The notes beneath the pieces were generated by a model that saw only the letters and a program-made list of their open reading frames with translations, was not told the origin of the DNA and made no database searches. A stretch of DNA of 63,447 nucleotides from Proteromonas lacertae (taxonomy: Eukaryota): the NCBI GenBank assembly GCA_002245135.1, contig NGBS01000605.1:62001-125447 (forward strand). The letters are read 5' to 3'. The position numbers and the translations under genes were made by a program. Shown one piece after another: positions 8,565 through 49,800 of the stretch. Within the stretch, counting starts at the first letter, position 1, and every line of letters begins with the position of its first letter.

Positions 8565-10757
8565 ATGGGATGCACTACTTCAAAGGAATTAGAATTTACT
8601 TCGGCTTTAGATCGAAGAGAATCAGAAGATCAAGTGGATGAAGCAGCTCAAGCTATGTTTTGTGATTTTCATATGTCATCAAGAGTGGATGTATCGTATT
8701 TATTTTTATTAGTTAGGTAACTGTTTACTGTAGTCATCTTCCTCAACTGGACGCTTTATCTAAATCTGATCCAATGGTTATTGTTTATCAAAAATCTAAA
8801 GAAGGTAGATGGTATGAATTAGGAAGAAGTGAAGTGTTAGTTGATGAAGATAAGTATATATTAATAATTATTATAAATAGTCCGCATTTTCAGAAACATT
8901 TCCCTATGACATTTATGTTTGAAGAAGAACAAATCATCAAATTCGATGTTTATGATGTTGATCAATTTGATGTTGATCCTCTACTAATATCCTTTTTCTA
9001 ATGTATAAATAATTGAATAATAGTGATATTCTTAATTATATTTAATTGAATTTAGCTAAACAAGACTTTATTGGTTCAGTAGAAACACCTTTAGCAACAA
9101 TAGCAGCAAGTCAATCAAAAATGAAAACTTTTCGACTTATTAATAATTCAGATAGAAAGAGACAATGGGGTACAATAACAATACAAGTAGAAGAATTATC
9201 CAATCAGAATGCAGATGTTATGTTAGAATTTGCAGTTCAAAGTATAATATTATATAATTATCTAATATTTTCTTTATTTTTTAGATTTTAATAAAAGTGG
9301 TTCTTATTTCTTACGAGTCTCTAGATTACGTGAAGCTGGTCAAAATGATGTTTGTTATCGAACAGAACTTACAAAATCAAACAATAGAGTATTACACTGG
9401 AAATGTGTTAAATTGAACATTCAACCACTTTGTAATGGAGATATTTATCGTCCATTAATTATTGAACTATTTCAATTTGGATCAAATGGTACACATTCAT
9501 TGGTTGGTTCTATTACAACATCATTGGAGAAGATACAGAGTGTACAATCAGTTCAATTAAAAGCACCAAATTTGTATTTATTTTAATCTTTTTTTTAATT
9601 CTATTTATAGAGTTGAATTACCGTATTCATTACAATTCATTTGTTGTCAAGTAAAGCCGAAGTTCACATTCTTGGACTACATTCGTGGTGGATGTGAATT
9701 AAACTTCATGGTAGCAATCGATTTCACAGGTAGTAATGGAAATCCAGCACAACCAGGTACTTTACATTATGTAGATCCAACGGGAAATCCAAATCAATAT
9801 GAAAAAGCAATTACAGCTGTTGGTAATATCTTAGAATATTATGATTCAGATAGAATGTTTCCTACATTTGGTTTTGGTGGAATTTATAATAATAATGTCT
9901 CCCATTGTTTCCCTTTAAATTTCAATGAACAAAATCCTGAAGTGAGAGGAGTTGATGGTATTTTAACTTCCTATAAAACAGCGATAAGAAGATGTGGTTT
10001 ATCTGGTCCAACGATATTTACGCCTGTTATTAGCACTGCTATTAGTTATGCATCACAATATCAAGCTTCTGGAGAGCAGAAATATTTAATTTTATTGATT
10101 ATTACAGATGGTTGTATAAATGATATGGATGATACAATTGCAGCAATTGTTACAATATCATTTTTTTTATTTTATTATTTTTATTTTCTTTAATGCATAT
10201 GTAAGCTACTGATTATCCAATATCTATATTGATTGTTGGAGTAGGAAATGCTGATTTTACTAATATGAATGTATTTATTAATCATATTATATATATATAT
10301 ATATATCATTAAATAGATATTAGATGGTGATGAAATAAGATTACAATCAAATGGTCGTGTAGCTTCTCGTGATATTGTACAATTCGTTCCAATGAATCAA
10401 TTCGTCAATCAAGCACAATATGTATTAACAAGTGAATTACTAGCAGAAATACCAAAACAATTATTAGACTATATGGAATCAAGAAATATAACACCCAAAA
10501 GATATTCTACTTCCCCTCATAGATCTGGTACTATGTCTAGTGTTAGTAGTTACTCAATTACTGATCAAATGAAGGATAGAAGCAATAGTACAGTTGGAGT
10601 TCCATTAGCTAGTCATTATGCTCAACCACCACAACCTATTAATATACCTTCTCCACCATATACTGGTGATGATAATAGTAATGTTAATCAACAATATCCA
10701 CCTGGACCACTTCCACCTGCTACTAGTATATATAATTTTGATTTTTATGAGCAATAG
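8565..10757 (+). CDS. Copine (C2A-C2B-vWA), N-terminal MGCTTSK, two AT-AA introns
   Basis: SKSDPMV, FDVYDVD, QDFIG, FLDYIRGG, AIDFTGSNG, LIITDG, SILIVGVG and RDIVQFVP copine motifs reassemble after splicing. Confidence 0.95.
8987..9045 (+). other. U12-like (minor spliceosome) intron with AT-AA termini, 59 nt
   Basis: Starts ATATCCTTTTT, has branch-like TTCTTAAT at 9029-9036, ends TTTAA. Removal joins DVDPLL to LNLAKQDFIG in frame; I found no GT-AG pair that restores the frame. Confidence 0.85.
10155..10204 (+). other. U12-like intron with AT-AA termini, 50 nt
   Basis: Starts ATATCATTTT, has branch-like TTCTTTAAT at 10186-10194, ends TGTAA. Removal gives the conserved copine segment DTIAAIVT|ATDYPISILIVGVG. 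Confidence 0.85.
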
Positions 10758-11092: not shown

Positions 11093-14000
11093 ATGACTCA
11101 TCTTCTCAATTTATTCAAGCATAAGTATCTAATAGTATGGGTTTTGAAGATCATTATGTGCTATGTCATAATGTGGTTGTATCCTGCTATATTCGCTTGT
11201 TCATGGCAAAGTATTAAAACTGTTTCTTATATAATGATGTCTATCGTTCATACTGTATTTATGTTGTATTTAACATCTAGATTCTATTTATTATATTTTT
11301 TTCAGAACAGATTCTGTATCGAAAATTCAAAAGAGCTAATATAAAGTATGAAGATGACACATCTGAAATTAATTTAATCCCTTATGGATATAGAACAAAG
11401 AGAGGTTTCATTATATCCAGTCTAATAAGCTTTTTGGCAGCATTTCCTTGGCCAATAATATGTGAATTGAATGAATCAACAGATTTTAGAATAGTAGCGT
11501 TCATTCCATTATTTTTATATTTATTCAACCTTTTTCCTACATATTCAATATCTATTGATTATGCCGTCCACCACAAATTATTACAGCTTATTTTTATTCC
11601 TAGAATTATACTGTTATTTGCGGCATTTGTTACAGCAATGCACATTTGGGCATGTATATTTTTGTGGACATCTCTCAATACAACCTTAGGAATGGAAGGA
11701 GGTTGGGTAATATTGGATAATGTAGCTAAATTTGATGATAATAATAATTTAATCCTACCACATGGGATATTTAGAGCATATCTAAGAGCTTTATACACTA
11801 CATCCACAAACATGGTACCAGCAGGTTTTGGAGATATAGTACCACAAAATATCAAAGAAACAGTTGTATTTATCCTATTTGTATATACAGGATATTACTT
11901 CCAAGTTATTGTCTTATCAAATATCAAAAATTTTGTAGCAGAAATGACATCTGATTCTATGAACCATGAACAGGAGTTAGATAATATCACACAGTATTTA
12001 AAATACAGAAGTATTCCACACGATCTACAGAAGAGAGTGAGAGCTTTTTATGATTATATGTTTCACTTATTAGAAGGTTTAGATGAAGAAAGTTTTATTG
12101 ATGAATTGCCACCTTCATTAAAATCGCAAGTGGCAGGTGAAATATCAGGTACTTTGGTAAGAAAAATCCCATTCTTAAGATCTTTAGATCCTACTGTAGT
12201 AAATGCAATAGTTATTAAATTAAAGAATAATGTTTATAGTCCTGGAGATTTGATTGTTCCACGAGGTAAAACCATGAAAACTGCCTTGTTATTTTCAAGA
12301 GGAGAAATTGATATTTATGATAGAAGTGGTAAAGTAAAGCAAACAAAAAACTGTGATCAAGGACATATTGAATATGAAACATCTTGTATAACTCCAGTAG
12401 AAGCTACAGATGATATAAGAGCGAAGAGTTATTGCGAAGTATATGAATTAGATCAAGATGAATTATTGAAAATAATAAAGAATTATATTCCTGATGAGTT
12501 AGAGAAGATAAAAAGTTCAGCTGAAAATAGTGCAAAATCAAGACAAAAGGCGATGAAAATGTTAGGTAATAGTGAAGATGAAAATAAAAAATCATATACA
12601 GGATGGAGAACTATTTTTTTACCAAATTCAACATTTAGATTATATTGGGGATGTATATTAGCATTTTGTACCACTTATGTTATATTGGTTGTACCATATT
12701 CATTCAGTTATTATTACTGGAAAAGTACTTCATTTTATATAGCAATAATTGTGATGAATTGTATTGCAGATTTGTTTTTTATAGTTGATGTGTTTTTAAG
12801 AATGAAATATTTTGCATATTCTGATAATGGTATTGCCGTTTGTAATAAAATACAAATATGGCAACATTATAAGAATCAACATCCTGTTATTGATATATTA
12901 GCTGGTATTCCATTTGAATATTTGTTATGTATTTATGATGTCAATTCATTCAATTTTGCTAGAGTATTTAAGTTATTAAGATGTGTATATTATGGTCGTC
13001 AAATTGGTGCTGTTATGGAGTTATTAAGAAATCATGGAATTCATATGTCTATATTAGTTAGTGAATTATTTAAATGGTTATTTGCTGTATATGTTGTAGC
13101 ACATTATCTCGGAACAATCTTCTATTTAGTTGGATTGTATAGAATGCATAATTATTCACCATTACCATTTACAGATGATTGGATAACGAGTGATAATATG
13201 GATGACACATTGAATGTACATCATGATAAATGGAATGGTTGGGCTGGTTATTTGCGATGTGTTTATTGGGCAATTGTTTCTACTACTTCTATTGGTTATG
13301 GTGATATTAAACCCAAGCATACAAGTGTCATTGAAACAATCTACGTATCAATTGCTGTGGTATTAGGTGGAATTGGATATCCTGTTTTACTAGGTTCTTT
13401 AGCATCTGTATTACAACAATTTGGACAGAAAGTGAGAGATTTTAAACAACATATGACTGATTTGAGATTATACTTTGAACAAAATAAAATTGATAAAAAG
13501 ATTAGTGATAGATCAATTGAATATTGTGATTATATATGGAGTAGACAACATGGTATTGATGAAAATGGAATTTTAAGTTCATTACCTTTACCATTAAGAA
13601 CACAAATAGCAGATCATATCTTACATCAACATGTAAATGATATTCCCTTTTTACAATTCATTGAACCACAAGTAATGCATGAATTATATGGTATATTTGA
13701 ACCAATGATATTCTTGCCTAATGATACTATTATATTACCTGGTACTGTCGGCAGTGGTATGTTTATGATTGAAAGAGGTGTTGTAAGATTAACAGCAGAA
13801 GATGGAACTGCATTAGCATTCTTATCTTCACCTCAATTTGTAGGTAGTGGTGCTTTAATTAATAAAAAGACAAAATTTGGTTATTATGCTGAAGGTTATT
13901 GTGATGGATTTTTATTACCTCGAAATGGTACTTTAGATATTTTAGATGATTTTCCAGAAGCTTCTCAACAGTTAAAAGCTGATATTTTAGAGTATGAAAC

Positions 14001-17000
14001 ATCCAATGATAGGTTTTACAACAATATCACTGAGAATTTAAAGACTAAAAGTAAATTGAATAAAGCAACAGGTGGTAAATTAGAGAGTAATGTAAAAGTG
14101 ATTAGTTTAAAGTCAATTCGTCATCCAGATTCAACAGCAAGAAGAGTTTGGTATATTATTGTGTATATTTGTATGTTATATTTGATGATTATTGATCCAT
14201 TAAGAGTTGTAGTCACTTTAAATGAGATGGTTCAATTCTTTTTACCTGATTGGATTTGCTATGTTATATTATTGGTAGATTTTTATTTACATTTAAATTA
14301 CTTTGGTTTTATGTATGAAGGTTCAATTCATTGTGATAAAATGGAAATTAGAAAACATTACACTCATTCATTCCCTTTTTATATTCATCTAATAGCTACA
14401 ATTCCTTGGGAAGTATTTGCTTATTTTGCATTTCTGAATCATTCTCAAGATGATGCATTACAAATAATATCTTATGTTAGAATAGTTAAAGTATTGTATT
14501 GTCTTATATATAGTGATTATTATGCATCATTAACACGTTTCTTAGAAGATTATCCATCCATTTCAAAGAATATTCCAAGAGCTTTTAGTTTACTTATTAC
14601 CATTTTATTAACTTCACACTTTTATGGTGCTGTATATTTATATTTAGGAAGGTATAATAATGATGGTGAATATCCAGTTAAAAAGTGTGAAAAATTATAT
14701 GATAAATATAATACAACAATAGTTAAACTTGGTATGAATGATTATGGAAGATGTTTGTTTGATAATACATGGATACAGAAACAAATAGAATGGAATTTAT
14801 TACCCAAAAATGGAGGTAGAGAATTTTCACAATATATGAGAGCCATTTATTTCTGTTCAACCACTCTATTAACTGCAGATATTGGAGATGGAATACCAAT
14901 CACAGATATAGAGACTGTATTTACAATAGTACTTATGATTGGAGGTATTTTGATTAGTTCTATAATTATTGGTGAAATTGCAGATATGGCTGTAAGTACT
15001 GCTGATGGTGATATTAAGACTAAAATGTATTATTTATACCAATATTTTGCTGTACAAAAAGTACCTTATGAATTAACCATTTTAGCACAAAATTTTGTTT
15101 ATAATTTCTTAGAAAATCGTAAAGGTACTGGTGAAGAACCATTGATAAGTGATTTGCCTGAAACTTTAAAACATGAAATATCAATGCATTATAAAAGAGA
15201 TTTTATTGTGAATTGTTGTTTATTTGAAAACATAGAAACTGATATTCAAGAAGAAATAGCTACTGCATTGAAATATAGAATATATAACCCAGAAGATGTT
15301 ATTTATAGAAGTGATAATCCAACAAGTGAATTGTATTTCATTAAATCTGGTAGTGTTAGATTATATCATGATAAATTTGAGAGTATGGCATCTTTGGTAG
15401 TTACATTAAGTGATAATCAATTCTTCAATGAATTTGCATTCTTTTATGATCATGTTGCTCATGAAAATGCAAAATCTTTGACTTTTGTTGATTTATTATA
15501 TTTGACAAGGAGTAATTTATCAAAAATAGTAGTAAAAAGACAAATTAATCCAAATGTTTTCTTTGAAAATACTCAAACACTTGACACATTTGAAGATCCA
15601 ACAAATGTTAGTAAAATTGATAGAACTTGTGCAAATCAAGCTCTTGGAGGTGGTGATACAAAGAATAAGATGTATTTATCTGATGTTAATCCACAAACAA
15701 CAAATTATTTGTATTTTCCACCAACATCAAAGTTTGTTATTTTATGGAAATCTGTAGGATCTTTTATGTTATTATATTACTTATTTACACTTCCATTTCT
15801 ATTAGCATTTTTTGTAGAAAGATTTTTAGATACAGATAAATATTACATCTCATTTGTCGTAGTTGATGCAATTGTTTATACATATTTTCTACTGGATAGT
15901 ATTCTCAATGCAAAATACTTTGCGTTTATGTGGGAAGGTGTATTAGTTACATCACAGAAAGACATATGGAAGCATTATAAGAAAACACGATTAGTTTATG
16001 ATATAATCACATTGTTGCCATTAGGAATTGTTGGTTGGTTTAGTCGTCCAATGTTTCCTTATATGAGATTAATCCATTATTTGAGATTATATGATTTACC
16101 ATCTTATACGAAAGTATTGACACATTTAATTGCTAATATTACAGGAATATCTGATGGTTTAATGCGAATGATTTCTATTTTGTTAATACATATCGCTGTA
16201 TCACATTATGGATCTTGCATTTGGTTCTTTATACATAGATATATTGAAAGATCAGTTGAATTGACTTGGGCAAATGTTGATAAATTAGCAACGTATGATC
16301 CTGTAGCTGGAGAGCATAATGTATTAGATGAAGAAATCTCATTGTTTTATGTTTACGTTAGAGGTATTCATTTTGTTCTAAGTGTAATATCTTCAGTTGG
16401 TATTGGTGATATTAGACCATATAATGATTTAGAAGTGTTTTGGAGTATTGTTATTTCGATTATTTGCTCTTATCTTGTCGCTATTAATACTGGTGCTGTT
16501 TGTGGTTATTTTATGATGGTTGATGCTCAAGGTGAACAAGCATTTTTAAAGAAAATGAGTATAATAAAGAAGTATATGGTAAAAAAACATTTTAGTGAGA
16601 ATCTACAGGAATCAATTAATAATTATTTTGAAGCATCTTGGAATAATATGAAAGGTGTTTTATTCCCTGATATAATTAAAGAATTCCCTATTAGTTTACA
16701 AGAAAAGATAGCTTATCATACATATAAAGATACAATATCCAAAATAGACTTACTAAAAGATTTACCTGAAGAAATAAAACACAGAATTTCTTTGTATTTA
16801 AAAGTATATACTGTTCATGAGAATGAATTTGTATATCGTGAAGGAGAAATAAGAAATGAAATTTACTTTATAGTAAATGGAAGTTTAGTAAAAACAGGTG
16901 TTGATGGTTATAAGAATGAAATGTATGCTGGTGAATCATTTGGTTGTTTTATTAGTGATATGAAGAATATATTCCACAAATACAGTGTAAGAGCATTACA

Positions 17001-17883
17001 ACAATCCAAATTATTGACAATCGATTTAACAGATTTAGAAACAATTAGAAAAAGAAATTCAGATGCTGATACTTTTGATTTATTTAGTAACATTTCTCCA
17101 CCAAGAAAGAGATTTTCATCCAATGCAATTCCTGCCAATTCCACTGGTAAATCAATGATGGGTCAATCAATGTTAAGAAAGAGTAGTGCTGGTTCATTAA
17201 CCCAAATGTTTTATTCAAATGCTAATAATACATTTACAGTATCAATGGATCCTTTCTTCAATTTCTGTTTTAAAAGAGATGCGAAATTGAAAGGAGATAA
17301 TGTGAAACATTTGGAAGATTTGAAAGAAGAAGATGATGAAGAAGAGAAAAGTCAAGATAATAATAATAATAATAACAATAAGAATGATAAGAATAACAGT
17401 AGTAATGAAATTAAAGATTTCAATAATAAAGTGAAAATGTCATTAGATGAATTAGATGGAGATACAGTTGAAGAAATAATTAAAGGAAAAGGATATTTGA
17501 AAGAAAATAATAATGAAGGATTATATACACAATCATTAGCATTCATATCTGATAAAGAAGAAACAAATGATGATATTAGAAGATCAGTTTCTTTACAAGT
17601 TACAAAGAATACGAAATTACCAACTAAAACATGTAAAAGAAGTTCTCAAGAAGATGTTTTGGTTACTCCTCCACAGATAAATAGTAGAATAATTAATACG
17701 AATGTAAATAATAATAACAATGATAATAATCTTAATACTCCGATGATATTAACACCAACAGTTTTACAACAACAGCAACAGCTAATACAACAGCAAATTA
17801 CATCGAAAAGTAATAGAAGTAGTGTATCATCTCATACAGCAGATATACCAGGTTATATTCCTGATTCGGAAGATTCTAGTTAA
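11093..17883 (+). CDS. Four-repeat (4 x 6TM-pore-C-linker-CNBD-like) cation channel, CNGK/tetraKCNG-like architecture
   Basis: ORF 11093 joins the 11434 frame through intron 11255-11280. Four pore loops (PAGFGDIVP, SIGYGDIKP, TADIGDGIP, SVGIGDIRP), each followed by a C-linker (ELPPSLK, SLPLPLR, DLPETLK, EFPISLQ) and a CNBD-like domain. Confidence 0.92.
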
Positions 17884-24158: not shown

Positions 24159-25107
24159 TTAATGATGATGTCTACTATGTTCCCTATCCCGATCTCTCCT
24201 GTCTCTACTCCTTGATCTATGTCGTCTTTCATCTCTATCTCTTCTATCACTTCTGTCACTTCTACCATCTCTGCTTCTATATTCATCTCTTCTGTCCCTA
24301 TTATGTCTACTTCTGCTTCTGCTTCGACTTCTACTCTTGCTGTGTCTATAACTCCTTCTACCGCCATCTCTACTATGACTTCTTCTTCTTCTATCTTTCT
24401 TAGCTCTTGTTGCTCGACTTGTACTTTTACCTCCTCCTAATCGAAGTGGTAACCATCCTTTCACTGTCCTTCCTCTTTCTACATCTACAGCGATCCTTTT
24501 ACCATCAATTTTTACACCATTTGCACATTCATAGGCTTTTTTAAACTCTTCTTCGCTTGAAAATTCAACAAAAGCATAACCTTTTGGTTTATTTTCTTTA
24601 TCTTTTACTACTACAACTGAAACAACAGTTCCATATTTTGTAAAAACTTCCTTTAATTTATCTTCATCTGTTTTATAACTTAATCTATATATAAATAGGG
24701 TTTTATATGCATCACTTTTGAATGGTTGTTCTTTGGGTTTATAATTCTCAATTAGTTTTGCTAATTCTTCTTTATGTGCTTCTGCTTTTTCTCTAGCTAA
24801 TCTGTCTTTCTTCTGTTGAGTTGTTTCACCTAATATTCTATCTGGAGGTGATGTTTTCTCAAACTATGTGTATAAATAAATAAGTGATAATTATACTTCA
24901 GTAATAAAATCTGCTAAACCTGTATATGGAGGGAGTGGATGATGTTCTGGTGGTGGCATTGCATCTGGAGCTGGTCTAGATTGAAATAATACTCTTAAAT
25001 CTAATAACAATTATTATAACATAATAAATACAGGGTGGTAGAAAAATTAATGCTGGACCAGGTTCAGTTTTTCTAGTAGTATCTCTTGGACCTTTTTTGC
25101 TTAACAT
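24159..25107 (-). CDS. SNRNP70: U1 snRNP 70 kDa protein
   Basis: FLPP|.LRVLFQSRP N-terminus, AYKTLFIYRLSYKTDE, KPKGYAFVEF (RNP1), VDVERGRTVKGWLPLRLGGG, and an RS/RD tail. Confidence 0.95.
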
Positions 25108-25270: not shown

Positions 25271-25902
25271 TTAATTATTAGGATGCTGAACAGGTAAATT
25301 TACTGATTGAGATAAAGCAGAATTCTTTTGCAAGTCTGATTTCATTGAACTCCATATATTCTTTCTCAATTTAGCAAAAGCTCTACGATTATCGCCTTTC
25401 ATACTTGATGACAAATCCATACACTTGATTCGAGTTTCATAATCTGAATTCTTGGTTAAATCATCCACTAGCCTTCTATCTACAGGTGGAGTTTTAATCT
25501 GTAGTAATTTATGCATATCACTTTCTCTTTCACTATCTTCATTCAGCAATTCTTTACAACTTTCATTAATTATCACACTGTCAGATTGAGATATAGGTTG
25601 TAGATCATCTACTAAAGCAGCAGTAGGCGAAGGAGAAGGTGATATTTCATAACTCACATTCACTTTAATCTCCTCTTCTTTAATTGGTTGAATAGGTGGA
25701 ATTGATTCAGTATTATTATCTTCACTGTTATTCTGGTTTATTTTACTTTCTATTAATTCAACATTATCATCTTCATTTATTCCTGACATTATACTAATCG
25801 TATTTCTTCTACTACTATTTCTCCTCATTCTTGTTGATGGATTTCTTAGTAGATTATAAGGAGATTCATTGGTAATTATTCCATCACTACATATTATCTT
25901 GA

Positions 25903-25935
<33 letters not shown>

Positions 25936-28192
25936 TGGTAGTTAACATTGGTAAATCATTCTCACTACTTGAATGGTTGATTTTCAATGACAATAACTGT
26001 TTATTGACAGTTTTACTATTATTATTATTTTCTTTATCTTTTTCATCACCACCATTTACACTATTAAAATTACTTCCATTATTTGAATTGAAATTACTAT
26101 CAGGAGTCTTTAATTCAGAGATAATATCCAATAAATGACTATTATTTACATTTACATTTACATTACTATTATTGCTGAAATGATCACTTAATAAATCTTC
26201 ATCATTAATACTCTGACTTCTATTTTTAATTACTAACTTCAATGATGATTTTCTCTTATCTTTATCAGTATTTCCTATATAATACAAATCCAATGTATTT
26301 ATATCAAAATCAACAGCATGCCATCCTATACTATTTCTTGTTAAAGTCATTGCACCATTTGAACTAGAAGATGAAGATCTCATTCTACCATTTACTTGTA
26401 ATAATTTTTCATCAAAAAATGGAAATTGATTTAAAGTCTTTGTTTTTATTGAAAGTGGTGGTTGGAGTAGTGATAATGTATTTGATGTTGATTGCGGTGG
26501 TGTTGGAATATTTAATTTATGTTTTCCTTTTTTCTCTTTCTCTTTCTCTTTATTATTACAATTATTAATATCTTCAATATACTTTTGATTAATAATCACT
26601 GGTTCTTGAATTGAATCACACAATATTTTTACTACTGGATCTATCTTGTGTTTATTATTATTATATGCTTTCAAACCAAATATGAATAGTTGTAATGAAG
26701 GATCATTATCAATATAATCCTGTAGAAATGATTGAAACATTTGCGTTTCTAAGAAAGATTTCATAAAATTAATAAATTCTTTTGGTATTTTATTCAATAT
26801 TCCTTTTTCCACTAATATCTCTGGATCTGCTGTTTGAACTTCGTTTATCATTGGCATTATAGGTGATAATAGTGGATAAAAACCACTTTGTGATACAATT
26901 CTTATATTATTAATCCAATTAATAGTGGTTGGATCATTTGTTCTATTCTGACCTGTAACTAACATTTCATTCTTATATAACATTGTATTGAATTGATTGA
27001 TGAAATAAGATTCTATTGATGATGGTAGTTTAATCATTCCTGTTGTTGAATTATCTTCATTTATTGATATTGGAGAGATTACTGTGTTTCTATCTAAATT
27101 CACCACCACTCGGCTTGACATAATTTGAGCACAAATTGGACTTGATAAAGCATCAGTACAAATACCTAACAATGATGGTAATGGTATATTCAAATAATCC
27201 AATGAAATGAGTGGCACAATTGGGATATATACGTGTTGCCAGTAAAATGGATATAATAATGATATTAAAGCTTCACAACAAAATTCAATTGTACTTACGT
27301 TTGATGAATAGAATAATATTTTCTGCTCTTGTATCATATAGGATAACAACTGCACAATATTATTGATATCTAATGAAAAAAATAAAGTGTAAAAACATAT
27401 TGGATCTGTATAAGGTAGTTGATTTAAAGATGTTTTTAATGTGATTGAATATTCAAAACCTGGTAGTTTTACTATGGTTGGATCATTGTCTTTTTTTACT
27501 ATATTATTCATAAATATTTGAGATAATGTTGATTCTAATTTTAAATTATTACTATTATTGGTTGGTGAAACTAACGGTAAGGAGATTAAGTCTGGAATAG
27601 CCCAATATTTCTTCTTTATATCAATAATTACATTCTTTTCTTTATAAACATAAAATATATAACTTAGAATGGATTTAAATAAGGAGAAAAATGGATTGTG
27701 AGTGACTATACAGATAGCAAATCTTATTGGCTATTTAATAGATATAAGAACAAAAGGAATTAATACTTTTCTATCTGAATTAAGAGTCTTTGGATCTAAA
27801 AATGATATGTATATACAGTATGAATGAGATCCACCATTACCTGTCATTGTCTAATTAAAAACATTAGTGAATAAAAGAATACAAAAACAGAAAACCTAGT
27901 ATCTGTCGAATTAGGTGCAGGAACTGTACATTGATATTCTGGAGGTATTTCATCATACAAACAAAACTATATATCAATACTTGTTCATAAACTATACCAT
28001 TGAAATACATGGAGGTAATGGAAAACTTTCATAATCTTCTTGAGGCCATCTACAAAGTACATTTGAATTTCCTTCGCCATAGACTTCTTTTCCTTCTACT
28101 TATAATAAAAATTGGTGTGTTATACTTGAATCGAAGTTAGAAACGACACAATAATAGTCAAATAGTCTCGACTCCTCCTTTATTGATGCCAT
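25271..28192 (-). CDS. DENN-domain Rab GEF with low-complexity tail
   Basis: RLFDYYCVV, RWPQEDYESFPLP..FCL, EQKILF, LLYPFYWQHVYIP, FLETQMFQSF. ATG at 28192 with several short introns. Confidence 0.9.
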
Positions 28193-35700: not shown

Positions 35701-35991
35701 AGGAAAATAGTATCAGATGGTCCATCAGTACCCAAATTTGGTAAAGGTCCTGATAATTACATTCCAAGTATATTCTCATCAGAACCACCACCAAATGATG
35801 GTGATAAAAGGAAATCAAGAATTAGTAATCAGGATTTCAGTAGAAGAGCATCTTCAATTAGTGGTAATGGAAGGAGAAGTTCATTGGCAAATAAAAGAGT
35901 ATCTTCAATAAGTCCAAATACCGTATGTATTGATATATTTATTATAATAGTTGAAAAAAACAGCTTCTGCTGGTAAGTTAAATAATCCTCC

Positions 35992-36028
<37 letters not shown>

Positions 36029-38629
36029 GACACTACAACCACAAAAGAGTAATAGACATCCAACACTCTCAAGACAAGGAAGCAGTCTTAGTAATAGAAG
36101 TAACAGAAGTCCACCATTATCTAAACAGGGAAGTGGATATTTATTAAATAGACAGAATAGCAATAAAACATTTCAATATTCTGAGGCATTACAACAAAAG
36201 ATTGCTATGTTGAAAGAGAATCTCAAAACACCAATAAATAGTCCAATTCATAGTGGTAATACTGAAACAGTTCCAGATTATTATGCAATGGAGAATGAGA
36301 AATTCAAACAATTAGAATATGAGCATCAAATGCAATATATTGAACAATTGAAACGTCAAGAAGAAATGGAATATAAAAAACAATGGAAATATCAACAGAA
36401 ACTTAAAGCAATGGGAAGTGGTGATGGTAATACTCAAAATGTAATGGCTATTCCAGAAGAAAAAGAGGGAGAAGAACAACAACAACAAGATGGTAAAGGA
36501 GAACAAGCGAATCAAAATGAGGGAGAAGGTGAGAGAGAAGAAGAAAAAGTTGAAGAGAAAGTTGAAGAAGAAGAAAGACCAAAAACACCAGAAATTGAAT
36601 CAGTAATAGCTACAGCTTCACAAAGATGGAATAAAGCACAAAGAACACCAATGGAATTTGCCAAAAGAATAGATATTTCATCTGAAGCAGATGTACAAGC
36701 ACCAGTAACAATACCAGCAGATAGACCAACCATGGAATTCACATTTACTAGTGAAGTAGCTGAAAAACGAAAAAGTGAGTTAAGAAAGAAGATATATGTA
36801 GGAAGTAAACACAATGTCAGATTATTAGCTCCACCTGGAATGATATCTTATAGATCTGTCAGTCCATCTTCCGCAAGTACATCAAGATCAAGATCATCTA
36901 TGTTTTCAACAGCTTCTTCTGAAGATGGTAGTGATTTACCTGAACATAATTTAACAAGAACTAGTATTAGAACACTATACAATAGACCCGCTAGTGGAGA
37001 AATAACAGAGAGTGATACTAATACATATACAGTGGATATAATACCAGGTTCATCTCAAGAAATTCCAATACATAAGAAACAAAGGGAAAGATCAAATTCA
37101 CCACCTCAACAACAGCAACAACAGTTATTAAGACCACCATCATCACATGGTCCATCTCCACTTAGACCCCAAACAGCTGATTCACAATTATCACAATTCA
37201 AATTAGATGATAGTATGAGTGATAGAAATTCAAGAGTTACAATAACAAGAGAATATGAAAATGTTACACCATTACCTGATAATATTATACCAATTTCAGC
37301 TGATAAGGTATATTATGATTCTAAAGGTGCTAATAATAAGAATTTATCTTTAGGTAAATCACAAATACCAGTTTTAGCTTCGTTAATATCAGGTAATCAA
37401 AATGCAGCAGCAACAAAGATAATAATCAAACCAAAAGTGAATAAAGTGGAGAATTTGAACAAACAATATGCAGAGGAATTGTCTGGTGAAGCTTATAGAA
37501 AGAAATCGAAGATATTCAACAGAATCTCCAGAATAGAAGAAACTCCACAAGAAAATGAAACTGTGAATGAAGTGAATAGTAAAACATTAGATGTTATACA
37601 AAAGAGAAATAATAATAGCAACGATGATGAAGAAAATGAAGAAAAGAAAATAAACAATGATACATTGAAACTAGATCCAATTAATACAACAACAACAAAT
37701 AAAGCTCTATTCTCACCAATAAAAGATTTGAAGAATATCAAATCAAAACTAATGGAACCTACTGTATCATCCTTAGCATCAACACATCCAAAGATAGTAA
37801 AAGAAGAGAAGAAGTATGAAATGAAACCAATCAGACCATTATCTCCATTATTACCAAATACATTCTTAGTAATGGATGGAGTATTAACATCCAAATTACC
37901 TCCAAATGAAATTAATATGTGTGTTGTTCCACCAAAAGTATATTATATATTAATTAATTATATTAATATTTTTTATAGAATAGTAAACAAATTCAACAGA
38001 TAGAACAATATTCAAAACAACAACAACAACAACATAATCATTATGAAAAGACTCTTATACCTCACCATCATAATAACAATGAAGAAGAAGATGATGATGA
38101 TATGTTTAATGAATTAAATGATGATGATGGAGTAGAGAACAGTTTTAATAATTTAAGTAATAGTAATAATTTCTATAAAACAAAAACTACAATTTCTTCA
38201 TCTCCATTATCTTATAATAATAATAATAACACAGTAAAAGAAGAAAAAAGTGAAGGATCTCTAATTTCAGTAAGACCATGTACAACTGTACCACAATCAA
38301 GGAAATCAGAATTAATTACACCAATCAGAAAGACTGTATCAAGTCAAGGAAAAAGAACAAATAAACACAATAACAAAAACAATAATAATGAAAAGAAAGT
38401 AGATTATTATAAATATACCAATGTGAATAATAATAACAATAAAGATGACTTCTTTGAATTACCACCATTGAAAACTTCTCAATATGAATTGTCTAAGAGT
38501 ATTAACACATTTTTACCAACATTTTCGCAAAGACCTTCAGAATTGAGTTTTAAACCAGTTGGTGAGTTTGAATATCCTATTCAGAAGTTTTCAAGAAGTG
38601 CTCCTTTGTATGTAGATGATATTGTGTAA
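32760..38629 (+). CDS. Large protein: N-terminal EF-hand-like helical domain followed by long N/G/E/S-rich disordered regions
   Basis: ATG 32760 splices into ORF 32858 (ITEEEYKDFM...DWEKD...LFELADTW). Introns near 35645, 35924 and 37938 link to ORFs 36207 and 38102. One apparent frameshift at the CAA run near 35990. Confidence 0.65.
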
Positions 38630-39816: not shown

Positions 39817-40740
39817 GATTTTTGGTTGAGTTTTTGCATTCAAGCAAGATTATTATTATATATGCAATTTACAATGAACCTTTATCATTTAGTAAATTTG
39901 GTAGAGTAGTTAAGTAATTTATGTCTTGTTCTTCATCTAGACATTTTGTAGATTGCTCAGAGAAAAAACTGTCTTCAGAGGGATTTTACAATGCATTATA
40001 CAACATTTGTGAAGAATGGACTACTAATGGTATGAAAATATTGTAATTCCTGTTAGAACATGATTTAATTGCTTGTACTGCAAACATTAGCTCCATTATA
40101 TACCAATCATACATGTATATTATTTTTTAAACCAGTAGTTCCTACAAAGGTGCAAATTGTGTAAATTGGGTTGGTTTTTATTTTGTATATAACTTATTTC
40201 TATAAAGTTAAACTAGGTTAAACCAAAATTGAGCAATAGAACTGAATCAGAATTAGTAAAATTGTTAATATATAATAAGAGTAGGTGCTAGGTCCATTTC
40301 AAGGTAAAGCTGCTGTGGTAAGGATTGATTTTAAAAATGGTGTATGTGGTGCTGCAGTCAGAGAGAATAAAACTCAAGTATTAACAAAAATAGATATATT
40401 GTAGTTGGTAAAAGATGTTCATTCATTCCCGGGTCATATAGCATGTGATAGCAATTCTAATTCTGAAGTATATTACAATTATGTCAAATTAATTAGATTG
40501 TAATTCCAATAAGAAAGACTGATATAGTTGCTGTACTTGATATGGATTCTCCCACTTTAAATTTTTTCACAGAAGTATGGATAGATATTTGTATTATTAT
40601 GATTTTAGGAAGATCAAGCAGGATTAGAAAGAATATGTCAATTGTTGGAAAATGTATTATTATATAAATGATTATATGTTGTTTTATAGAATGTTAATTG
40701 GATGAGTTTGAGATGTGAAAGTAGTATTATAAATTATTAA
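39817..40740 (+). CDS. msrC: Free methionine-R-sulfoxide reductase (GAF fold, fRMsr/MsrC-like), 9 introns, start uncertain
   Basis: Spliced NWVGFYF, LVLGPFQGK, GVCGAA, VKDVHSFPGHIACDSNSNSEIVIP, VLDMDSP. Absent from the ORF track because the exons are tiny. Confidence 0.9.
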
Positions 40741-40899: not shown

Positions 40900-43787
40900 A
40901 TGGCCACTAAGGCAATATCATATCTTTTTAACATTTTTAAAACACTTTCGATAACTTAATTACCTTAGGGCTGATATAAAGTCACAGAAAAACTCAATCT
41001 ATTGTGAAAGAAGAGAAACGTCATCTTCAGTAATATCAGTATGGCATAATCAGTATAATATTATAGGTGCAAAGTGATTCAATTAGAGATTCATTTCTAC
41101 TACCCTTTACAACAATAGTATTTTTTTTATGTTCTTATGAAATCATAGTATGAAGTTAATTCCATAACAGAGGAAAATTTTACGACATGTTTCAAGAATA
41201 TTAAACTGAAGCTGAAAGACTATGAAGAATGTCTTTCTTGTTATATAGTACAATAATATTTTTTATAAATAATAATATTTAGAATGATTTAAAATCCATA
41301 TCAGATGATATTAGTATAAATGAACAGTATAATACATACAAATCAATCACATCAAAATATCAAGATAGATTAATGTCATGCAATACATGTACTTCTAGTT
41401 CTAGTTTAGATAATTATAAATGTAGTTCACCATTAATTAGTCCAGTTACAGATCCTTTATATGAATTAAGAAAGGATTTAAATAACAAACATCTTAAGTT
41501 ATTAGATGAGTATTTATTAGAGAATGAGAAAGAGAATAAGAAAAGAAATGAAGAGATGAGAAATATACATAAAGAGAATATAAAATTACTTTCAAAACTA
41601 CAAGATCTTAAAGGGAATATATTAGTTTATACTCGAGTAAGACCATTGTTAAAAAATGAAAATAAAACTGTAATAGATAATCCAAATGTAATAGAAATAT
41701 TTAACAATAGTACAATATCAATAATTGATTCAAAGGAAGTAAAGTATTCATATAATAATATTATAATGGAAGGACCAAAAACATTTGAATATGATCGTTG
41801 TTATAATACAGAATCAACTCAAGAAGAAATATATGAAGATTTTAGACCTTTAGTTGGATCATTATTGAATGGATATAATGTTAGTATTATTGCTTATGGT
41901 CAAACAGGTTCAGGTAAAACTTACACAATGTTTGGAACAGATGAGAATAAAGGATTGAATTATCGATTATTGAATGAATTATTTGAAAATATTAATAATA
42001 ATAATAATAGTGAAATGACAGATTATGAAATACAAGTATCAATGGTAGAGATATATAATGAAAAGATCATAGATTTATTAAATACATCAACTCCATGTTT
42101 ATCTCCCAAGAGTAATAACAATATAAAGAATTTAGAAACTGATGTAAAGAAACAAACCATATTAGAGTTGAATGATTTACAGAAATTAATAAAAATGGGA
42201 AGTAAATTAAGATCGACTGCTTCTACTGAAGTAAATACTCATTCCAGTAGAAGTCACTGTATAATAACAATATACATTAAACAAACTGAAAATAGTGGTA
42301 ATATAATAAATAGTAAATTATATTTAGTAGATTTAGCTGGTAGTGAAAGAGTTAGTAAAAGTGGTGTTGAAGGAGAAAGACTAAAAGAAGCACAGAATAT
42401 CAATAAGTCACTAAGTGCATTAGGAGATGTAATATCTGCTTTAGATAATAAACAACAACATATTCCTTATCGTAATAGTAAATTGACCATGATATTGAAA
42501 GATAGTTTAAGTATAAATTCAAAAACAGTTTTATTGTTTAATATTACACCCACTTTAAATTCTTTAGGTGAGACTTTTAGCACTTTAAATTTTGCTTCAA
42601 GAGTAAAACGTATAGAATTTGGTACAATACAAAAGCAAATACAAATTCATAATAACGAAAAAGAAATTAAAGAAATAAAGAAAATTAATATTCAACTAAA
42701 GAGTCAGAATGATAAATTGATGGAGGAAATAAAGAATATGAAAAATCAAATCAAAGAATGTAACAATTCAAAGGATGATGCAAATTACAAATTATTGAAT
42801 GAATTGAATGATAAAAATGATGTTTTAATAGCATATAAAAAGAAGTTAAAGTTATTAAATGGTAATTGTATTAAGTATAAAAATGGATATGATGAAATAA
42901 TGAAGGAGAAATTGAAATTAGAACATGAAAATGATAATCAAACGAAACTAATCAAAACTCTTCAACAATGTAAAAATGAGAATGAAGTATTATATAAACA
43001 AAATGCAGAATTGAAAAAGAAATTATCCTCATTAAATAATGACAATAAATCAGAAATGAACATAAAAAGAATTATCAACAAGAAAAACAATAGTAATTTA
43101 AAATCCAAAAACAATTCATCTTCTATTCCATTACGTTCAACATCAAAGGATAATAAAACTATTAAAGCAACAACTGATAAACATAATAATCCACATGTTT
43201 TTACTTTTGATTCTACAACTACAACTAATAATATAAAATCTCCCTCATTATCACCAAACCCCACTTTTTCGAAATATTCTCCTACCGAACTGTTAAGAAG
43301 AACAGCTGTACCATCACCATCATCTCTTAGTAGAATTCAACCACCAACTCAATCAAAATTACAATCATCACAATCATTAACAGCCACAAATTATATAACA
43401 ACTGATAATATGTCAAATACTTTACCAACAACAAAAAGTGATTATTATGATATAAATAGTGACTATAAATATAGATTTGGTCAATCTTTGTTGTTTAGAA
43501 AGATTAAACCAAATAATAAAGCTCCAACTCCTTTATTTAATGATGAGAATGTGGTAAAGATTAACAACAGAAGAATTCCACCAAAATTGCCAACAAAAGA
43601 TAATAAGTCAGTTATTTTAAATGAAATTAAGAGTGATGAAAAACTGAAGTTTCATTTTGGAAATAATAAGTTCAATAAGACAGTATCACACTCATCTTTG
43701 ATGAATAAACAAAAAGCGAAATTTGAATATTTGAAAAAAGGAAGTAAAACACCACCAGTTATAATCAAGAAAATACTTAATAATTAG
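40900..43787 (+). CDS. Kinesin-14 family motor with N- and C-terminal coiled coils
   Basis: Neck LQDLKGNILVYTRVRP, GQTGSGKT, SSRSH, DLAGSER, HIPYRNSKLT. Upstream exons are traceable to ATG 40900. Confidence 0.9.
40920..40968 (+). other. Candidate U12-like intron with AT-AG termini, 49 nt
   Basis: ATATCTTTTT...AACTTAAT-TACCTTAG. Removal joins MATKAIS to ADIKSQK in frame; there is no GT between the ATG and this acceptor. Confidence 0.65.
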
Positions 43788-43880: not shown

Positions 43881-46800
43881 ATGATCATGTTGTTATTGAT
43901 GATGATTGGAGGTATTTTACGGTTATATATTTTGTATAGTACTATCTACTCCATGTACTAAGTTTGATAAAGTAATGAACCTAATTGTTGGAAAAGAAGT
44001 ACAAATATGCTCTCCCTTAGGTTTCAATCACTCATGTACCTTAGATAATGCTTTACCAGATGGTTTACATCTTCAAAATAATTGTAGAATTACTGGTTTT
44101 ACTAAATCACCATTTAAGGAAGATGTCTTTACTATTATCTTTCATTCAAATGATGAAATAGTAAAAGAAATTTCTTTCTCACTTGGTATTTATGAAAGAA
44201 TAGAAAGTTGTAGTTATGGAGTTAGTTCAGATGTTATTGTATTTCCTGAGGATGTCACATCATCATTAGTTGGTCCTAGATGTAATATTGCTGTAGATAA
44301 GTGTATTACACCCAACACATTACCAAAATTCATAATTCTTGAAGAAGATGGTTCAATCAGTGTTTCAAGAGGTATAAAATCCAATATTGACATTGATATA
44401 ATTTGTTATAATGCAGTTAGTGAATTTTCAATGAAGTTAAAGGTTATAATTTCAGGATCTTCCAAGAACATAGCTGTACAATACTTAAATTACCCATCTG
44501 AGTATGTGAAAATGAATGATGAGAATGAAATATATTTAAAACCATCATATTTAGGGAATGTAACTCAGTAGTCAATTCAACCCAAACCATCAGAATGTAT
44601 AAGATTTATAAATGGAACTATATATGTAAAGTGTATGAAGATAACAAAATCTGAAAGATTTAGAATAACAGCATCAAATGATAGAAGTGAATCATCAACT
44701 GAATTTACATATCCGAAGAAAGAGAATGAAATTAGAAATCTTCAAGAAAATTTACTAGAAGAAGTAAAATCACTTGAATATTATCATAACTATTATAATC
44801 TAACAGTTGGAATAAAATATACAATAAAACCCAAAACGAAAGGATTTTGTTCATCAATTGAGAATTTAGAAATACCAAGTGATAATGGTTTTGAAATGAA
44901 AAATGGAGAATTGATAATCAAATTAAAAAAACCAATAGATGAATTTGTTGAAGTAAAATTTCAATGTGGAATTGATGGATCTACTACAACATTGAGATTT
45001 TTGAGTAATGATGGTTATATGTTATATTCTAATTCAAAGATAAATGAAATTAGAAGTGTTTTGTATAATGATGAAGTGAAAAGTTGTGAAATATCTCCAT
45101 CATTACCATTTGGAGTTTATTTTAACCCAAATTATTGTATAATCAATGGATATTTATCCAATGTTGTAAGTGAAATGAAAGAATATAGAATAAGATATCT
45201 AGTGAAAGAAGGAGAAAGAGCTATAGAAGATGAAATACTGTTATTAGGAATTAGTTCGAATTTGATAGAATGTTCTTATGGAGTTGATGATATAATTGTT
45301 ATTCCTTCATCACAACCATTTAAAATAAACAAAGCACATTGTAATGTTCCAATTCAAAGTTGTCGATTAAAGAATGGAATATTATTTGATAATTTGATAT
45401 TGAATGAAAAGAATGGTGAATTATCAACAACAGGAATAACAAAAATTGAAAGTGAGAGAGAATTAATAATCGAATTTAGTAATTTGAGACAAACAATAGA
45501 AACAAAAATAAAAATAAAAGTTGATATTGTATGGAATCCTTATTCTAATCCAATCCAATTCTTTCACTATCCATCAAATGAGATAATGATAATAAGTGGA
45601 GTATATATTGATGAAATAAAACCTTCATTTGAAGGTAGATTAGATAGTTGTGAAATAAGTAATGGTTATGTTTTACCAAGTGGAATTGTATTAAATCCAT
45701 ATAGATGTATAATTAATGGAATATTAAATAATAAACCAGAATTTGACTATCAAACATTAATAATTAGTGGAAAAGATAGTCATAGTAAATCCTCATTTAC
45801 ACTAACAATAAGATATTATGAATCTGATGCAAGTAAAGCAAATGAAGGGTTTAGAGGATATTATTATAAAGATTATTTTGATGATACAAGATGTTGTCAG
45901 CATCATGAAATAACCAATAAAGCCATATTGAAATATGTGATGATAAAAGATCAAATCGATTATGAAGATAATTCTTATTTATGGCCTGATTTGAGTTACA
46001 ATTTCGAACAACAACATTCTTTGAATTTTTCATATATATCAAATGGTTTTGATAAAAGATTACAATGGAATGTCAGTGGTAGTTTTTGGTATAAATCACC
46101 TACTGTAGATGTAAAATCCAATTCACAATTATGTAATAGTGATTGTAGTTATAATGGAGTATATACTGCAAATCATGATACTTATGGATATGGATTTATG
46201 TATTTTGGAAGACCAAAAACATCTTCAATATTTCGAGCTGTATTTAGACATGAAGATAATAGTTATTTTAATAATACAATATATCATATTCCAATTGGAT
46301 TGTTAGAATATAATTTTACATATGCGATTTATCCATTAAATGCTCCAATTCCAATAAATATTCCAATATTCCATAAATCAACAGAATCAAGTAAATATAT
46401 ATCATTTTCAATATATCCAACATTACCAGAAGGTATATTATTTAATGATTTGAATGGTGAAATAAGTGGAAATCCATTAATTGAATCACCTTTAACATCC
46501 TATTACATAACAGCAAATTCAAAATCAGTTGATAAACTCACAACCAAAATCGAGATAGGAGTAGAAAGATATGATGATGATAAATCCTCTTTTACTTGTT
46601 TAAGTAAATCTGAATATATAGTTGGTGAAGAAATAATGATATATTGTGAAAGAATAAGTCAATCTAAATTTACATCAAATTCATTACCAAATAGTTTATT
46701 ATTAAACAAAGATGATGGAATAATTTCAGGCAAATCATTCGAACCATTAACAAATTACAAAATAAAAATATATAGATATGGCTTAAATGGAATATGTTCA

Positions 46801-49800
46801 ACTGAAATTACATTAAATATAAAATGTTCAAATTACTATTTTAGATTAGAATATAACTATATGGGTGATAAAGAAGTGACAATAAAACGTAATGAAGATA
46901 ATCATGAAATAATAGCGATGGTGTATGATAATCCAAATTTACATGTTGTAGAATATGTTGTTAATGAGAATGAAGGAAATGGAAATTATAAAATGAGTTT
47001 TAAACATTCTGGAAAATATATAATCTACAATTCAAAACATGATATATTATTTGCGAAAGAAATAGATTTAGAATCTGCTGAAATATCATTTTCTGTTGTT
47101 GGTGAAGGAAATCCAATTCTAGAATATAAGAATAATGAAATTTCATTGACTTTTGGTATAGATTTTTATATAGGTCCAAAAATAGTGAATGGATGTAACT
47201 ACTTCGAAATCGATAAAATACCGAATGGAATATCATTCAATTCATATACAGGAGTAATATATGGTTCAATTATGAATGATTTTAAAGAAGGTAATGTGAA
47301 TATAAAATGTAGAAATGAAAATGGTTATTCAAATACATTTGCATTGAAATTAAAAGCAGAAAAATGTGAAGGAATTGTTTTACTATTAACAATAAGTTTT
47401 GTTGATGAAAGAAATAATAATCTAGTAAAACTAGAATCATTAGATGGAAGTAAGATATTATTTGATAAAACAAATGTAGGTTCAACAACAGTAAGATTTT
47501 GTACTAATGAAGGAATATATAATTTATATACAAGATTCTTCAATTCAAGATCTTATGTTCGAGTGGATGTAATAGAAAGTAAATCATTTGTTGAAATAAT
47601 ATCTGGAAATAGTAAAACATCGATAATAGCCTATAGATTATATAATGAAAATAATAAATGGTATTACACTGACAATATTCAATCTGGAAATGATTGGATT
47701 ACATCTAGTGATAAAAATGGTTGGAATGAAAGAATATCCGAATCATTTGGAGATAAAAGTGAATCTTTAATAACAAGATATTACAAGAATATATTCAGTT
47801 TTACAAAATCATCAGAATTAGAAAAATATTTCAAAATCAAATTTGAATATGAAGGTGGAATAATAATATATTTAAATGGAAAAGAAATTTACAGAAATAA
47901 TATATTAGAAGAAGAATCAATAGATGGTAAAACATATGCAATAAATGATATTGGATTAAAAATGATAGATTTACCACTTCCATTATCATTATTATTATCA
48001 TCATCACCAAATATAATATCAATCGAAGTTCATAAACTGCTAAATGATAGAAGAAGGAAAGACAATTTTAGAATTGATTATCAATTTATCCAAATAAATG
48101 AATGTGTAAGTAAGCCACAATTAAAAGTAGAATCAATAAAAGCCTTTGGTAATGTGAATGGTAGAATTGGAGATTATTTATTAGAATCTGAAGAAATATC
48201 TAAATTAATAGATGATGATACATCAACTAAATTGAGTTTTAATATGAGAGAGAATAATTATATTCTGAATACTTGGATAGAAATAAGCTTCAAAGAAAAG
48301 ATATTATTTAATAATTATATTCTATCAGCTCCAAGTAGAGGATTATTAAATGGATTTCCAATCGATTGGGAATTATATGGGAAAGAAAACGAGAATGAAG
48401 AATGGATATTACTTCATAAAATAGTGAATAATGTTGAGCCAAAATATAATGAAAAATTATCATTTTATATTCCTAATAATGAAAAAGAATATAAGATATA
48501 TTTATTTAATTTTACTCGTCGAGGTGTATCTGGTGATAATTTATGTCCCGAATTTACAATTGCTGATTTTATACCTGAATTATGTAATTATGAAAAATAC
48601 TGTAAAAATACGAATATTCCAATGGGTAAAACTATAATATCAACATGTGAAGCAGGAAAAGAATCTGATTTAAAAACTGATATATCAGAGCCAGCTCGAA
48701 TTTATACAAGTTGTATAAATGATATAGGAAATGCGGTTGTTGATATACCAACAGGAACAAGTTGTTCATTAAAAAGATATTGGTTTGGCTGTTCATCTGA
48801 TTTAATCGAATTGAAAATTGATGAAGAAATTAATAAGCAAGTATGTTTTATTATAATAAATGGTGAATTTACACTTTCATCTCAACCAAAATTACCAGAA
48901 AGATTAAGAATTGATAAAAATGGAAATCTGAATGGTATTGCAAAAGTTATTGAAAAGAATCAGTATTTAATTACACTTAAATCAACTAATAACTATGCTT
49001 CAAATAGTATTACTAAAAAATCATCACTAGATATAAAAATATCAGGGTTTTGTAAAAAAGAAAATGGTTGGTTAGAAACTGAAGTTGGTCATGAAGCAAT
49101 ATTAAATTGTGATATTGGAAATGAAAATGAATTGATGAGAAGAAAATGTTTATATGATGTAGAGAATAAAATTGCAAAATGGTCAGATTATATAGATAAA
49201 TCTGATTGTTATATTGAAGATATATATTTATCTACATATCCAAATATAATAAAAACATATGAATTTGAGAAGGAAATATTATCAATTTCACCTGAATCAG
49301 AATATATAACCATAAATGATAGACTACTTACAATTAATAGTAGTAATGTAATAGTTAAAAAATATAAAGTTCAATTAAGTGATTCAATAATACATGATGT
49401 ATATGTGAGTGTAATAAGAGATGTAGGTAAATGTAGTTATGGTGTTGATTATATAAGAATATATCCAATTGAAATAGATTTAGAATTAAGATGTGATAAC
49501 AAACCATCCTATTTATTAGTAGAAAATCTACCAAGTGGATTGAATGTAAATAAAGATGGTCGAATTATTGGAATGATAGAAGAACCAACTGAATATGAAG
49601 AATATAAAACAATAATAACCTATATAATCGATAAGAAATATCGATTAGAATTAAATTGGTATAAAAAGACAAGAGAAATGTCAAACGGTTTAGAGTTTAT
49701 AAATTTTGCTGAATCTAATCAAGATGGAATGAGTGATTATGGTTATACATTTTACAATATTAAATTGAAAAATATTTGGACAAGGTTTGAAAATAAAACA

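Follow-up and report, generated by a model that had tools for sequence, protein, structure and literature searches.

Two likely U12-type AT-AA introns in a copine gene of an AT-rich, probably Blastocystis-like genome

Minor (U12-type) introns are generally regarded as ancient, and gains of them as rare. The usual direction of conversion is from U12 to U2, a change from U2 to U12 being held highly unlikely, and the optimal distance between the branch point and the 3' end of U12-type introns is given as 11-13 nt (PMC3584512). In Blastocystis ST1, 346 U12 introns have been described together with all four minor snRNAs and seven specific proteins (Gentekaki et al. 2017, PMC5608401), and minor snRNAs and minor-specific proteins are present in ST1 and ST7 (PMC5608401); the initial annotation of the locus described below likewise noted that U12 introns are on record in Blastocystis. 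The ST1 minor introns are longer than the major ones and 49% of them lie in phase 0. The published text on Blastocystis stresses AT-AC ends (77%) and leaves open whether its minor introns reflect gain or loss (Larue and Roy 2023, PMC10639083).

The intron list of ST1 (PMC5608401, S11 Data) has 339 introns that start with ATATC: 336 with ATATCC, three with ATATCT, and none with ATATCA. The ends of 150 of the 336 ATATCC introns were tallied by eye (rows 1-120 and 307-336), and 95 end in AC, 45 in AG, seven in AA, and three in AT, giving 55 of 150 that are not AC. Among the initial 30 introns counted, the branch A lies at -7 in 18, at -8 in 11, and at -9 in one. TCTTAAT and TTTTAAT branches occur in the list, several ST1 genes hold two or three minor introns, and six AT..AG introns of 30-31 nt lack a U12 donor. 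No ATATCC intron is listed in the ST4 intron sheet. Public Blastocystis data thus already show relaxed ends, branches shifted towards AT, and introns that annotation has missed, and AT-AA ends alone are no surprise. The initial annotation had proposed relaxed 3' ends and an AT-shifted branch site for the present genome; the proposal agrees with what we infer below, but these are not new traits, given the 55 non-AC ends, the seven AA ends, and the TCTTAAT branches of ST1. A search of the openly accessible literature gave no account of minor introns in Proteromonas or in Blastocystis of low GC content, although supplements may contain some, and the main text of PMC10690189 does not mention U12 or minor introns.

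The DNA considered here, called the window, is the whole stretch of 63,447 nt that was analysed; its GC content is 26.6%. It carries a copine gene at 8565..10757 (+) with two C2 regions, a vWA/copine domain, and a Pro-rich tail, modelled as 634 aa with seven introns. The frame is open from 8565 to 10757 once introns A and B and five GT-AG introns are excised, the Pfam domains C2 and Copine are found on the exon frames, and the exons are intact and ~70% identical to the nearest relatives in a homologue alignment. The major introns of the gene span 26-46 nt, and most have counterparts in copine loci from gut metagenomes, seven of which, of Blastocystis type, were modelled. The intron at 8691..8716 (+; 26 nt, phase 0 after aa 42) lies at the same position in all seven. 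That at 8854..8880 (+; 27 nt, phase 2 at aa 87), placed by homologue alignment, in frame and stop-free, is also present in 7/7 and is absent from the plant-type loci that cover the position. The intron at 9242..9284 (+; 43 nt, phase 1) is based on the open spliced model and a gene-finding script. For the one at 9574..9610 (+; 37 nt, phase 2), five of the seven loci have a phase-2 intron at aa 283-289, and the one at 10271..10316 (+; 46 nt, phase 0 after aa 488) is common to Blastocystis-type and plant-type loci. The first of these introns has a GTATCG donor; a GT-AG minor intron was considered at 8691 and rejected, since it is 26 nt long, has no branch motif, and is major-type in relatives.

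The two remaining introns are of another kind. Intron A (8987..9045, +; 59 nt, phase 0 after aa 123) starts with ATATCCTTT and ends with TAA, and its predicted branch motif, TTCTTAAT, lies at 9029..9036 (+) with the A at 9035 (-11). Intron B (10155..10204, +; 50 nt, phase 0 after aa 466) starts with ATATCATTT, has a non-consensus A at +6, and also ends with TAA; its predicted branch motif, TTCTTTAAT, lies at 10186..10194 (+) with the A at 10193 (-12). Ten nucleotides follow the last branch-motif A in intron A and 11 in intron B. An in-frame stop results if either intron stays (at 8999-9001 in the case of A). The initial annotation is borne out on all these points: the coordinates, lengths, phase, starts, and TAA ends of both introns, a last branch A followed by 10-11 nt, and the need to remove both stretches to obtain a copine. 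With their removal needed and their junction defined by homology and reading frame, A and B count as real introns. Their sequence, the need to excise them, the length of B, and the homologous junction of A are shown directly; their exact ends, the branch nucleotide, and the machinery that removes them are predictions.

A gene-finding script, a codon model that permits AT donors and uses no homology, chose the same boundaries for A and B, and its log score rose from 243 to 296 once AT donors were permitted; its AT-donor rule, and a branch bonus used in one run, were written after the two introns were known. Among 1519 stop-free in-frame junctions within 60 nt, no GT-AG or GC-AG alternative exists for intron A. 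The proposed junction has the top profile score among those with recognisable ends and ranks 50th of 353 overall; the intron sits in a variable loop, and therefore the homologue profile cannot fix its junction. An AT-AC option for A (8987-9066) was rejected because it removes LNLAKQD and loses 11 bits, and AT ends at ST1-like branch spacing were rejected because, as read from the sequence, they give frameshifts or a stop.

We estimate the probability that A and B are U12-type AT-AA introns excised by the minor spliceosome at roughly 0.8. To compare them with the major introns of the window, 64 introns were predicted, eight doubtful ones dropped, and one added, leaving 57. All 57 are GTA..TAG introns, as the scoring used to predict them favoured; they measure 23-51 nt (median 32), and 55 of them are below 49 nt. 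The initial annotation had called A and B longer than major introns of ~28 nt, and the difference holds, but the major introns are on the whole longer than that. A C at +5 is found in one of the 57 and in A, B, and the third candidate described below, and a CTT+AAY branch motif in 2/57 against 2/2 (A and B; Fisher p 0.0035). The donor of intron A fits RTATCCTT fully (ATATCCTT), and that of intron B, ATATCATT, mismatches at +6. The branch motifs are C-to-T variants of CCTTAAC, and the same variants appear in ST1 rows; the branch-to-3' distances of A (-11) and B (-12) are as expected of U12-type introns, and AT-AA is a known AT-AN variant (7/150 in ST1). The C at +5, branch motif, spacing, and length relative to the majors thus point to the U12-type identity that was first proposed for these introns.

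The strongest competing reading, although an unlikely one, keeps the junctions and has A and B as U2-type introns, removed by the major spliceosome, each with its initial and its final G changed to A (GTAT..TAG to ATAT..TAA). Since the majors are GTA(T)..TAG in 57/57, a consensus partly built into the scoring, A and B would differ from them only at the two terminal bases; moreover, position 123/0 holds a U2 intron in relatives, the donor of B breaks the U12 consensus, and the ST1 list has its six short AT..AG introns without a U12 donor. Also counting against U12, ATATCA starts none of the 339 ATATC-starting ST1 introns, and a donor and branch combination arises by chance ~1.6 times per window. 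Yet +5 C (1/57) and CTT+AAY at fixed spacing (2/57), rare in majors, recur in A, B, and the third candidate; all six U2-like AT introns of ST1 end in AG and are major-sized; and the two introns, at 59 and 50 nt, fit the ST1 pattern of minor introns longer than major ones. In +5 C, fixed branch motif, and length of 50-59 nt, A and B depart from the 57 majors in ways that a mere change of termini to A..A does not cover.

Considered alone, the motifs do not exceed chance in the window. ATATCCTT occurs 10 times against 6.5 in shuffled sequence; a strict donor and branch pattern occurs four times against 0.66 expected (maximum 4 in 50 shuffles), and a looser one three times against 1.57, with 36 of 200 shuffles reaching three. 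The case therefore rests on the motifs sitting exactly where the protein needs introns. Further motif hits, at 27808, 13643, and 36846 (-), were discarded as fortuitous matches in coding or antisense sequence. GTATCC is depleted across the window (2 against 15.4 in local shuffles) and ATATCC is not (63 against 55.6), which may reflect codon usage or a tendency to avoid minor donors of GT type. An Rfam search of the 63-kb window, which covered the minor snRNAs, gave no hits, either at the gathering threshold or at E<=1, and neither minor-specific proteins nor rRNA are found in the window. An RRM gene at 24159-25107 (-) was considered as U11/U12-35K and rejected, being nearer to U1-70K (E 1e-35 vs 3e-21); this U1-70K gene carries two GT-AG introns.

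That intron B ends elsewhere, leaving just one AT-AA intron in the gene, is very unlikely. With B removed, the protein aligns to homologues without any gap, and the spacer from ITDG to PxS is 18 aa in 240 of the 243 copine homologues that have the motif (266 examined, 23 without it). This conservation fixes the length of B at 50 nt, but not its register. An AT-AC intron at 10160-10209 ties with the proposed junction (665.8 vs 665.7 on a general copine profile of 94 homologues), but it starts with ATTTTTTT, which is no U12 donor, the ST1 list having only two ATT-starting introns, neither of which ends in AC; it also puts the branch A at -17. It would give Ile-Ser; of the 240 homologues, 216 have Ala and one has Ile as the first of these residues, the second is Ser in 202 and Thr in 7, and residue frequencies in this plant-heavy set favour the proposed junction by ~7:1. 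A GT-AG intron at 10114-10205 starts with GTATAAAT, a good major donor such as a gene finder would take, but deletes 14-15 conserved residues at a cost of ~50 bits; counting the option from 10111 as well, the GT-AG alternatives to 10205 lose 49-53 bits and delete a conserved helix. Assembly error or a dead gene, with ends that are really AC or AG or with decayed splice sites in an unspliced gene, is highly improbable: the window does have frame breaks at (CAA)n near 35990 and near 61650 and 62476 and an in-frame TAG at 44569, and a single missing G after 10205 would turn B into an AT-AG intron, but errors would have to have struck independently at precisely the final base of both introns, the window has unbroken frames of 2200 and 5713 codons, the ~70% identical copine exons are intact, and AT-AA ends occur in the RNA-seq-curated ST1 list.

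If A and B are U12-type introns, U11/U12 would recognise an ATATC(C/A)TT donor and a TCTT(T)AAT branch. Even with its C-to-T changes, the motif could still pair with an unchanged U12 via G-U wobbles, the pairing sequence considered being the canonical one of U12. The branch A would attack the 5' A of the intron, and distance would be the main determinant of the 3' end, which would fall at an A-N dinucleotide 10-11 nt downstream of the branch A. Introns that start with A tolerate AC, AG, AA, and AT, so the last base can drift to A in introns of ~85% A+T. The A at +6 of intron B is predicted to mismatch U11/U6atac, and B may accordingly be weakly spliced or be read by altered snRNAs.

A candidate third minor-type intron lies near the start of a kinesin gene (40920..40968, +; 49 nt, phase 2), with uncertain boundaries. 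It has the form ATATCTTTT...CTTAAT...TAG, that is, AT..AG ends with the branch A at -10, and an alternative donor is present at 40915; no single GT-AG intron links an upstream ATG of the kinesin with the next exon. The minor share in the window is 2/59 (CI 0.4-11.7%), or 3/60 (1.0-13.9%) with the candidate, and 1/53 outside copine. These figures overlap the 1% of ST1, and it was the two firm cases themselves that prompted the finding; the suggestion in the initial annotation of a common class of minor introns is not supported by them.

A and B resemble the U12 introns of ST1 in their ATATC start, their YYTNAY-type branch including TCTTAAT, their greater length than the majors, and phase 0, and also in having AT-AA among the ends (7/150 read), several minor introns in one gene, and a tendency to be missed in annotation. 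They also differ from them. At +6, intron A has C, intron B has A, and the third candidate has T, whereas 336/339 ST1 introns have C; the branch A lies at -10 to -12 rather than at -7 to -9; the ends are TAA, TAA, and TAG, with no AT-AC, which makes up 63% in ST1; and the length is 49-59 nt as against about 37-43. In animals and plants, AT-AA is the commonest non-canonical minor end and the branch spacing is near 11-13 nt, as here, but all non-canonical ends together account for ~4% of conserved minor introns there, compared with 2/2 firm cases in the window (PMC10639083; PMC1557818), and the window introns are very short and AT-rich. In Physarum polycephalum, +6 is likewise relaxed (TATCYTT), the branch A lies 9-12 nt from the end, AT-AA makes up 27% of the non-canonical ends, and recent gains have been inferred. 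Unlike the window, Physarum has more than 20,000 such introns, a TTTGA branch with compensating U12 changes, and a transposon signature (bioRxiv 10.1101/2020.10.12.336362). The window evidence consists of three introns at most, read from DNA; expansion and snRNA change are shown for Physarum.

Comparison with orthologous copines bears out intron A in part: its 3' junction coincides with that of an intron in relatives, but that intron is GT-AG, and the position of B is empty. In six of the seven Blastocystis-type loci, a GT-AG intron of 29-31 nt ends just before an L-x-L-x-x-Q-D motif, as intron A does; locus L017 has no GT-AG intron at this position, and the aligner set that of L007 two residues off. 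Annotated ST1 or ST4 introns correspond to three of these six, and the 3' exon of A begins at the same residue as the exons after the annotated GT-AG introns OAO14110_3, OAO12122_3, and KNB42441_3 of ST1 and ST4. Position 123/0 is hence U12-like in the window copine and U2 in relatives. In two plant-type copines (L020 and L022), a GT-AG intron in phase 0 sits one codon upstream of where A lies. At 466/0, the position of B, 34 of 34 covering loci have no intron (39 fetched, many of them near-duplicates, three intronless). The nearest Logan copine proteins read through both the 466 and the 488 sites, and, the 488 intron being old, intron loss is possible in them.

Human-gut Blastocystis copines have a U12-type intron of their own at aa 201, phase 1, a position shared with neither A nor B. 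Its inferred ends are AA in the ST4-matching locus (L007:4593-4632), AC in L012:4634-4670 and L001:4636-4675, and AG in L017:4668-4704. The ST1 annotation buries this ATATCC..CTTAAC..AC intron in a 133-nt GT-AG intron, OAO14110_4, and the ST4 model KNB42441 gives only three introns, all before it. The expectation that gene finders miss such introns is supported by OAO14110_4 and by the ST4 sheet with no ATATCC entry, and the same error is thus visible in public copine models of both subtypes. Unless gene models for AT-rich, Blastocystis-like genomes admit introns with ATATC donors and any A-N end, genes in these genomes will come out truncated or wrongly spliced.

In a copine tree of 31 rows, a hand-picked subset of homologues, the window gene groups with the Logan proteins (99/97), outside a clade of Blastoise (tortoise) and human-gut Blastocystis copines. 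The joint support of the window copine with those of Blastocystis is weak (85/83), and the affinity therefore rests mainly on shared intron positions, namely 42/0, 87/2, 123/0, and 488/0. The host is likely an AT-rich Blastocystis or a close relative. Eight exon frames of the window had no exact match in the protein collection searched, a search of representative proteins gave nothing closer than 70%, and a scan of prokaryote genomes and viral contigs showed no relative. The relatives of a DENN gene at 25271-28192 (-) form a Logan cluster with 10 members, at an identity of 74% overall that rises to 95% in the core; they represent a sister lineage, for which reads are public.

Because the window copine lies outside the clade of its relatives, one change on either branch explains the U12/U2 difference at 123/0. 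The copine family has minor introns at three positions, none of them common to the window lineage and the human-gut subtypes and one of them major in relatives; these positions make a concrete test of gain versus loss and hint at gain or U2/U12 switching. What is new here is a looser start signal, a longer branch spacing, and minor-type introns at sites that in relatives are either occupied by an ordinary intron or intronless. A wider reading, tentative and rather doubtful at present, is that minor splicing has loosened in this lineage (an ATATC-any-TT donor, ends in TAN, loss of AT-AC as the predominant form, and probably altered U11/U6atac) and that minor introns are still being gained, B by gain and A by conversion from U2 to U12. 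Given the frequencies in ST1, finding AA ends in two of three introns has p ~0.006 and finding a base other than C at +6 in two of three has p ~0.0002, both values being post hoc, from a window picked as odd and with one of the three introns only a candidate. If this wider reading is true, Blastocystis and its kin would join Physarum as the second tractable system in which minor introns are still being gained.

The window has several other features. The stretch 43902-63447 (+) encodes a giant protein that contains putative-Ig (He_PIG) and PA14 repeats, with an open frame of 5713 codons and an internal repeat of ~6.9 kb; the in-frame TAG at 44569 and the breaks near 61650 and 62476 indicate a pseudogene or assembly error. 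At 11093-17883 (+), a channel of ~2200 aa has two ion-transport and four cyclic-nucleotide-binding domains. Nucleotide cyclases have reportedly been lost in Blastocystis (PMC10690189), and the channel may be informative about the taxon. A frame break from poly-Thr to poly-Gln at (CAA)n in 35951-36040 (+) is likely a one-base assembly slip, or else an unmodelled intron. Finally, a 193-aa gene at 39921-40740 (+) contains eight introns of 21-36 nt, and its product presumably resembles a GAF-domain free methionine sulfoxide reductase.
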